From: Escherichia coli
Lineage (GTDB): Bacteria > Pseudomonadota > Gammaproteobacteria > Enterobacterales > Enterobacteriaceae
Length of the DNA: 64,000 nucleotides
Reading direction: 5' to 3' (one strand)
Assembly (NCBI RefSeq): GCF_024298765.1
Contig: NZ_CP101210.1
Shown: positions 61,601 through 64,000 of the stretch, one piece after another
How the letters are laid out: every line of letters starts with the position of its first letter
Position numbering within the stretch: the stretch's first letter is position 1
Program-made: the position numbers

Positions 61601-64000
61601 CTCTGCCGGAGAAAATGCGGGCAACCAGGATGCGTCCTCTCCACGCCGCGCACCAATTTTAGTGACAATTGTCAGGTCGTCAGAGTAAGGATAAAGCGCT
61701 TCGCGGATAATCTGATTGGTGACGTGCGGACCATAAAAGTCGCTGGTATCAATATGATTGACGCCCAATGCCAGCGCCTCACGCAGCACGGTTATAGCGA
61801 CGTGGCGATCTCTTGGGGGGCCAAAAACCCCAGGACCTGCCAGTTGCATCGCGCCATAACCAAGACGGTTAACGGATTTTGTACCGAGAGTAAATGTATT
61901 GCTGCTCATCGCACCCTGCCCTGTAATAAAACGGATTAAGAAAAATAGTATAGAAACGAAAAGAGATAAATAATGCGAAGGCGTAAACAAGATTACTGGA
62001 TGAGTTGCTCTATTGCCCTGAAAGACACCAAAACAAAACGCGTCAAGTACCGCATCCGGCAATAAAAAAACCGCAACCTGTATCAGCGTTGCGGTTTAGG
62101 TATCACATGCTAAAAATTAGAACGTCCAGCATCAGGACGTTACTGTTTCGGTCGCAGATTCTCATCAAATACCAGGCGCTGCCTGCCAGGTTCAACTTCC
62201 CGCAATGGCTCAACTTGATGCAACGTCTGCTTACTGCGTGTCACCAGCACCTGATACTCATGCGTGCCCTGCTTTTTCCATGCCAGTTCCTGCTCACTAA
62301 GTTCACGAATCGCTTTTGCCGGGCTGCCGACAATCAGGTAATTAGCAGGCATTTCTGCTTTGGCTTTCACAAATGCGGAAGCGCCAACAATGCTGTTCTC
62401 GCCAATCACCGCACCGTCCATCACTACCGCGTTCATACCCACTAATGCATTGCGGCGGATAATGCAGCCGTGAAGGATAGCGCTATGACCAATATGCCCA
62501 TCTTCTTCCACGACAGTATCCTGATCGGGAAAACCGTGCATAACGCAATTATCCTGAATGTTCGCGCCATCTTTCACCACGATACGACCGAAATCGCCAC
62601 GCAGGCTGGTATTTGGCCCAACGTACACGCCCTTGCCGAGAATAACATCGCCGATCAATACCGCTGTCGGATGGACAAAACTCTCTTCTGGCACAAACGG
62701 AGTCAGACCGTCTATCTGATAAATTGGCATAACGCCTCCTGTTCAATATTCAAGCCGCCAAAACGTTGAAAATACAGGCTTCCCGGCGCAGGCAATTCAC
62801 CGACCGAGGTTTCACCTTTTTCACTAACGAACGCTAAAGCAGCAGGCGCTACGCGCTGATAAAGTTTGCCGATAAAGGTTTGGTAGTCGCGCAATATATC
62901 CGTAACCGTCGTCTCGATTTTTGTGCAGATGCGATTCGCCATGCCGCAGATGATGAAAAACTGGCAGGCATTGGCTTTCATTGGGGATTTTCCGACCAGA
63001 GTCATTTTTCAACGGTATTTAAGCAACGCTTTGGGATGACGCCAGGCGAGTATCGACGTAAATTCCGCTAACTAATTCGCGTTGCATGTACAGCAACGCG
63101 AATTAGTTAAAACAGATATTTGACTATGCATTTTTCAGGGCGAAAGGCAATTTGACAGGAATTTTTGAATATTCACGTTGTTTCCGGAAAATAGATTAAT
63201 CGTCTTCTCCTGTAGCGTTATCCCGATATTGCGGTTTTGCTATTAAAATTTTCGCACCCATTTACCGTTTATCCCTTGTACATATTCCCCGGGTTTGGCC
63301 CGTTCTACAAGCTTTTGCCCGGCGAGTTTCGCGATATCATCCACCGACACATTATTCTGCTTTGCCAGTTGTTGATAGCTCGCTTTACGTTCGGCATTGA
63401 TGTCGGTTACTAATTTCTCAGTTTCAGCATCTGTTTTCAGCGCAACCAGATAACCATAAAATGTTTCGCCTACCCGCCCCTGAGTTCTGGCTTCATCCAG
63501 AGTCAATGCCATTACATTGCTGCTTACCAAGCCAACAAGAAATGCACAAAGAAGTAATGTTCTTTTCATCATCACCTCAAAAAAGATCGCTACGGGTCTC
63601 AAGCAGCTCTTCGACATCTTTGTCTGCCTTGATGATGATCTCATGCTCAATTTTAACGTTCATATTGATAGTGATCGGTTCCTTAGGTGCAGCGACTTCA
63701 ATGCGAGGCGTACAGCCAACCAGCATAAAAGATGACGTCAACGCAGCCAGTAAAATTTTCATTGTTTATCCTCACACTCTTTTCCTTGCGGACAGTCATT
63801 TCCCGGTAGATGCGCGTTCTGCTCCAGCCATGCCTGGAGATTATCGCCAAAGCGTAAACTGCGCCACAGCGTAAAAATATTCTCTTCATGATGGTAATTA
63901 AGATTTACCGTACCGCTTTTACCATCAACGCGACTGGTACCTGTAATATTGGCCTGCATGGTTAATAAACCGAGATTATCTAAATTAATTTTTGTCGATG

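Follow-up and report, generated by a model that had tools for sequence, protein, structure and literature searches.

A paaX–feaR joint beside an orphan paaY in Escherichia coli, very probably the scar of a single ancestral deletion

The feaRB-tynA-paaZ-paaA-K-paaXY segment of Escherichia coli, which lies between ydbH-ynbE-ydbL and ynbC, has been described as heterogeneous (PMC4951805), and in one panel of genomes the B2 and E members have no paa locus (PMC5422975). The papers found by our literature search treat the locus as variable, and the exact joint analysed here is not described in them. Presence or absence of paa is a documented polymorphism, the deletion itself is already annotated, in that RefSeq flags both of the gene stubs as pseudogenes, and the scar is an ordinary strain-to-strain difference of the accessory genome. 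In K-12 the intact locus reads feaR-feaB-tynA-paaZ-paaABCDEFGHIJK-paaXY (b1384-b1400); positions in it are given below as L002 coordinates.

The window, i.e., the whole stretch of 64,000 nucleotides that was analysed, is E. coli DNA and is 99.94% identical to the chromosome of strain 104, a chicken isolate (NZ_CP029164.1), over positions 1-50005 and 56105-64000. In the final 7.9 kb, the sole difference from strain 104 is one copy of a pentanucleotide repeat. The region between pdxI and ydbL is, with high confidence, the scar of a single ancestral deletion of 17,752 bp (relative to K-12), which runs from the interior of paaX to the interior of feaR. The features on which this reading is built are the following.

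61049..61909, minus strand: pdxI (ydbC), the conserved left flank (strain 104 annotation; 554 bits, NF007695)
62140..62730, minus strand: paaY, an intact 196-aa open reading frame apart from the paa cluster (ORF list; TIGR02287)
62712..62863, minus strand: paaX 3' remnant, 152 of 951 nt, PaaX residues 268-316 plus the stop codon, colinear with L002 20574-20725
62863..62864, no strand: deletion junction, ...GCTGATAAA joined to GTTTGCCGATAAAGG..., from exact anchor matching
62864..63071, plus strand: feaR 3' remnant, 208 of 906 nt, FeaR residues 234-301 plus the stop codon, colinear with L002 38478-38685
63069..63109, no strand: a perfect 17-bp hairpin that overlaps the feaR stop codon, in the spacer of the convergent genes feaR and ydbL (-25.9 kcal/mol, z = -6.6)
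63243..63569, minus strand: ydbL, the conserved right flank, followed by ynbE and ydbH (strain 104 annotation and K-12 synteny)

The joint was placed by exact anchor matching against three intact alleles, those of K-12, FDAARGOS_1276 and NT1F31. In BLAST comparison with the K-12 MG1655 locus, window positions 62139-62866 match paaY and the 3' end of paaX at 96.3%, and positions 62861-63300 match the 3' end of feaR and ydbL at 96.8%. Only one block is missing relative to K-12, the 17,752 bp of NZ_AKVX01000001.1 1,444,792-1,462,543 (L002 20726-38477), comprising the first 799 nt of paaX, the genes paaK to paaA, paaZ, tynA and feaB, and the first 698 nt of feaR. A chance pattern is excluded, because each of the elements (paaY, the paaX end and the feaR end) aligns colinearly with its K-12 counterpart at 96-97% DNA identity. 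The initial annotation had proposed that one deletion took the phenylacetate cluster, the phenylethylamine oxidase genes and their regulators, and had suggested an alignment to K-12 feaR and paaX; that alignment maps the breakpoint to 62863/62864 and, with both flanks colinear and exactly one block gone, agrees with the proposal.

The paaX remnant overlaps the start of paaY by 19 nt and leaves 133 bp from the paaY start codon to the joint, close to the roughly 130 bp of paaX first estimated to precede the AraC-family fragment. PaaX is incomplete, with a score of 24.2 bits against a cutoff of 264.55 for the paa operon repressor (NCBIfam TIGR02277). The feaR remnant retains most of the AraC-type DNA-binding region, and its 68 amino acids are 100% identical to residues 234-301 of K-12 FeaR. 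It covers 68 of the 301 residues of FeaR and is likewise incomplete, reaching 124.8 bits against a cutoff of 199 (NF007243, the AraC-family activator of tynA and feaB). The same FeaR model is the best NCBIfam match of the fragment (E = 4.5e-36, profile positions 236-303 of 303), and the Pfam models HTH_18 and HTH_AraC are matched as well.

The initial annotation had taken this AraC-family C-terminal fragment for feaR and had equated its place beside ydbL with the feaR location in K-12. Both statements hold, given the complete identity to FeaR, the best match to the FeaR model, and the order of ydbL, ynbE and ydbH, which is that of K-12. A different AraC-family gene as the source of the fragment is disfavoured by the profile comparison, in which the runner-up AraC-family model reaches only E = 2.5e-11. 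One detail had to be corrected: the feaR frame is closed upstream by the TAA at 62835-62837, within paaX-derived sequence, and not by a stop at 62859, as TGA 62857-62859 and TAA 62860-62862 sit in a different frame. The misplaced stop codon leaves the deletion conclusion unaffected. PGAP annotates a PaaX pseudogene and a helix-turn-helix pseudogene beside paaY in strain 104, both with a missing N-terminus, and we infer that both stubs are pseudogene fragments without activity.

At the joint paaX runs directly into feaR, and no insertion sequence, terminal repeat, foreign bases or long repeat was found there. The hexanucleotide AATGTT is present at both parental breakpoints, within GATAAATGTTGATAC on the paaX side and CCGAATGTTTGCCG on the feaR side. 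Clean recombination at this microhomology would be expected to yield GATAAATGTTTGCC, whereas the observed joint reads GATAAAGTTTGCC and is one T short, so that the strict microhomology is 0 nt. The 6-bp overlap between the two BLAST matches (62861-62866) was considered as microhomology and rejected, as the exact anchor comparison attributes it to tolerated mismatches. Because the joint has neither an insertion sequence nor strict microhomology, the likely cause of the deletion, as judged from the sequence, is illegitimate recombination, which would have been of the end-joining or slippage type with imprecise joining.

The flanks carry several further differences. The hairpin between feaR and ydbL is a native intergenic element and not a product of the deletion, the region being colinear with K-12. 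On the other side, the gap between pdxI (ydbC) and paaY (62126-62138) measures 13 nt in the window versus about 8.9 kb in K-12 (L002 11059-20000), where the interval is taken up by a small open reading frame and by the autotransporter pseudogene ydbA, which IS2 and IS30 interrupt. Absence of ydbA as a part of the paa deletion was considered and rejected, since NT1F31 is without ydbA yet has an intact paa cluster; FDAARGOS_1276 has both ydbA and the intact cluster. An IS200C element lies on the minus strand between ydbD and pdxI (60408-60999), where K-12 is without an insertion sequence; it consists of tnpA (60408-60866) and the IS200-associated small RNA STnc490 (60876-60999, 146 bits versus a gathering score of 56). 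In ETEC1738, an IS200/IS605 tnpA occupies the expected place of pdxI. A perfect (CGTTA) microsatellite of 9.2 copies (59889-59934) lies inside the frameshifted ydbD (DUF2773) pseudogene and has 10 copies in strain 104; no CGTTA run of three or more copies was found in the corresponding loci of K-12, M160133, NT1F31, THO-008 and MRY15-131. Farther away, about 175 bp at 7292-7465 do not align to strain 104 at the megablast level, within a surrounding 50 kb that is 99.94% identical; this stretch belongs to the gene for an RHS repeat protein in a Vgr/Rhs cluster of type VI secretion.

The junction is present in 259 of 5,426 complete E. coli genomes (about 5%), at one place in each and always on the chromosome. 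This count was obtained with a 400-nt junction probe and an E-value cut of 1e-130, which half matches cannot pass. Carriers with a junction of 100% identity are mostly poultry isolates, including avian-pathogenic strains of serotype O78:H4, which we take to be ST117, and APEC O2-211. More distant carriers include M160133, MRY15-131, THO-008, ETEC1738, DCE7 and EPEC1 (NZ_LT903847), a derivative of the enteropathogenic strain E2348/69, presumably of phylogroup B2. Base-by-base inspection covered 7 of the 259 carriers (strain 104, M160133, MRY15-131, THO-008, ETEC1738, DCE7 and E2348/69), and in all seven the joint is identical, including the missing T.

A chimeric probe, comprising 500 nt of the junction and 350 nt of paaA (E <= 1e-135), matched 3,390 genomes, each at exactly one place. 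Joint and paaA were not found together by this probe in any genome, on the chromosome or on plasmids (0 of the 259 carriers); paaA is present in about 3,131 complete genomes, and both paaA and the joint are absent from about 2,036. In addition, a sensitive blastn search of 60 genomes with a 100%-identical junction piece found a second place in none of them. Judging from these relatives, the genome from which the window is taken would be without paa genes elsewhere.

The one paa gene that survives whole is paaY. As the initial annotation had stated, the gene is both intact and orphaned: its 196-aa reading frame is uninterrupted and scores 370 bits against a cutoff of 319.6 for the NCBIfam equivalog TIGR02287 (residues 3-195, profile positions 1-192 of 192), and it stands outside any intact paaXY operon, with paaX truncated and paaA to paaK absent from the locus. 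The product belongs to a hexapeptide-repeat thioesterase family and carries the Hexapep Pfam repeats; the gene is 96.3% identical to K-12 paaY at the DNA level. The native promoter of paaY, upstream of paaX, was lost with the deletion, and a simple, crude consensus scan found no sigma-70-like site from the joint to paaY. The sole upstream transcription unit on the paaY strand is ydbH-ynbE-ydbL, with the hairpin in between, and a paaY without a promoter of its own could therefore be transcribed only by read-through from that unit across the hairpin. A terminator-like hairpin followed by a T run lies on the minus strand directly after the paaY stop codon (62121-62141), and another hairpin, rich in GC and also with a T run after it, can be read from the sequence near 62066-62098 on the same strand; paaY thus keeps the signals of its native 3' end.

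It is possible, though we consider it rather doubtful, that selection maintains paaY for a task outside the paa pathway, for instance as an acyl-CoA thioesterase or a gamma-carbonic-anhydrase-like protein, and that the nearby deletion endpoint is not accidental. The reading frame is full length in the window and in five of the seven sampled carriers, the entire paaY stretch is kept in 258 of the 259 carriers (MSHS 133 is without most of it), and in a table of one metagenomic study the association statistic of paaY is unlike those of the other paa genes (PMC4819403). Pairwise dN/dS of paaY among carriers is 0.10-0.19, with dS of 0.11-0.17 at the upper end, which could mean continued purifying selection; imports from strains with an intact cluster confound the figure, and the low values may come from such donors via recombination. 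Against selection stand the B2-type carriers, in which paaY has suffered M1K and the loss of its stop codon, and private changes number nine nonsynonymous to nine synonymous. Two other common deletion alleles described below (the NQ3 and 95-3322 types) cut or remove paaY, and a promoter-like site upstream was not found. In the E2348/69 derivative and DCE7, AAG stands at the canonical start of paaY and its stop codon has been lost; PGAP calls an intact PaaY of 204 aa with a shifted start in both, which may be an unflagged pseudogene. The window lineage carries the PaaY replacements V12F, A41T and C166S, with two to three private replacements versus one synonymous change. On balance we lean, weakly and by a small step, toward paaY as a relic in gradual decay, with selection on it relaxed, and away from its retention for some new function.

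The distribution of the joint raises the question of how many times it arose. Because all seven inspected joints are identical, missing T included, a single origin is far likelier than recurrence. The window and M160133 are identical over the 380 bp around the joint (62698-63077) but show 20 differences in paaY and 17 in ydbL. Among carriers, no more than 13 of 341 nt differ in the stubs, versus a synonymous divergence of paaY of up to 0.11-0.17. The feaR stub of ETEC1738 shows the same allele pattern as the intact feaR of FDAARGOS_1276, and does so up to 21 bp from the joint. The simplest reading of these seven genomes would be one allele whose flanks were repeatedly overwritten by homologous recombination, or one that was itself transferred. 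Sequence next to the joint would be preserved under such exchange, since a donor whose cluster is intact has no uninterrupted template that spans the joint. The joint thus appears to have arisen once, with descent and homologous recombination in the flanks probably carrying the allele into several lineages.

A more elaborate version of this history, in which one old allele was recombined into deep lineages (avian-pathogenic strains, M160133-like strains and the B2 strain EPEC E2348/69) and was favoured as the catabolic loss helps in some hosts, with paaY perhaps kept for a non-paa role, strikes us as improbable in its full form. Repeated formation of the same joint at a deletion hotspot is much less probable still. 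The locus is deletion-prone, with at least four different deletion alleles, flanking DNA is up to about 5% divergent between carrier lineages, and AATGTT is present at both parental sites, all of which a hotspot would accommodate. However, the idiosyncratic missing T, shared by all seven carriers, is not reproducible by a repeated microhomology event, the remaining deletion alleles have quite different breakpoints, and the stubs are far less diverged than the synonymous sites of paaY.

The deletion also created a chimeric reading frame of 97 codons on the minus strand (62712-63005), which begins with an ATG in the antisense of the feaR stub, continues across the joint in the frame of paaX, and terminates where the paaX stop and paaY start natively overlap. 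That the stubs have gained a function, either as a FeaR DNA-binding fragment of 63-68 aa or through this chimeric frame, is hardly credible. The frame is open in all seven sampled carriers, and the native overlap that it keeps could couple its translation to that of paaY. Nevertheless, random stretches of 47 codons are open by chance about 10% of the time by simple arithmetic, the substitutions able to close the frame are few, and a consensus scan found no promoter-like site. The FeaR fragment is without its native start and N-terminal domain and falls short of its family cutoff (124.8 versus 199 bits), and PGAP labels both stubs as pseudogenes. A function for the chimeric frame or the FeaR stub was rejected, the openness of the frame being its one support.

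The opposite polarity, with the short arrangement ancestral and the fea-tyn-paa block inserted in K-12-like strains, would fit the description of the paa locus as a heterogeneous region between core genes (PMC4951805), but an empty site would hold no half-genes, and the 3' pieces of paaX and feaR in the window align colinearly with the complete genes, which makes insertion exceedingly improbable. Both truncated genes keep their 3' ends only, and the short form is therefore a deletion from an intact locus rather than an island that was never acquired. An assembly artefact can be dismissed, as the identical joint occurs in 259 independently assembled complete genomes.

The deletion took away the entire phenylacetate pathway (paaZ and paaA to paaK) together with the entry steps for phenylethylamine and tyramine (tynA and feaB), and it disabled both regulators, PaaX and FeaR. 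The roles of these genes in phenylacetate and 2-phenylethylamine catabolism are reportedly well established, through Ferrandez et al. 1998 and Hanlon et al. 1997, both cited in PMC4951805. With paaABCDE, paaZ, paaF-K, tynA and feaB lost, aerobic catabolism of phenylacetate and of 2-phenylethylamine should therefore be abolished, and we infer that the strain is unable to use either compound as a carbon or nitrogen source. Non-growth on phenylacetate and 2-phenylethylamine is predicted for the window strain and for the roughly 5% of sequenced E. coli with the allele, a prediction of practical value when strains are typed or their metabolism is modelled. As a clean marker of single origin, the joint could be used to trace recombination between lineages. 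The scar opens no long-standing question, and annotation pipelines already mark the stubs as pseudogenes.

In comparison with the K-12 locus, the window has the same flanks in the same orientation at 96-97% DNA identity, an intact paaY as in K-12, and an identical hairpin between feaR and ydbL, whereas it is without 14 whole genes and the 5' parts of paaX and feaR. The K-12 block of the ydbA autotransporter with IS2 and IS30, in the interval between pdxI and paaY, is absent from the window as well. Among carriers of the same allele, strain 104, M160133 and EPEC1 have the same joint as the window, and PGAP annotates the same two pseudogenes with a missing N-terminus beside paaY, whereas the flanking genes of carriers of this type differ from those of the window by up to about 5%. 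Unlike the degenerating paaY of the B2-type carriers, the paaY of the window has its canonical length.

Besides the allele of the window, the fea-tyn-paa block has at least three deletion alleles of independent origin, which were mapped against K-12. In the NQ3 type, which makes up 5 of the 40 rows in an even sample of the genome match ranking, the 3' 329 nt of paaY are joined to the 3' 252 nt of feaR, and L002 20343-38433 is missing. In the 95-3322 type, everything from paaY through feaR is gone and the ydbA autotransporter adjoins ydbL, and in HCM-25C-3 the joint lies inside tynA and is occupied by an IS3 element. Two of these three alleles end within 44 bp of the feaR breakpoint of the window or in the spacer between feaR and ydbL, a pattern suggestive of repeated loss at the locus. 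In sum, the NQ3, 95-3322 and HCM-25C-3 types have lost the fea-tyn-paa catabolic genes between the same core flanks as the window, and among these four alleles only that of the window leaves the whole of paaY.
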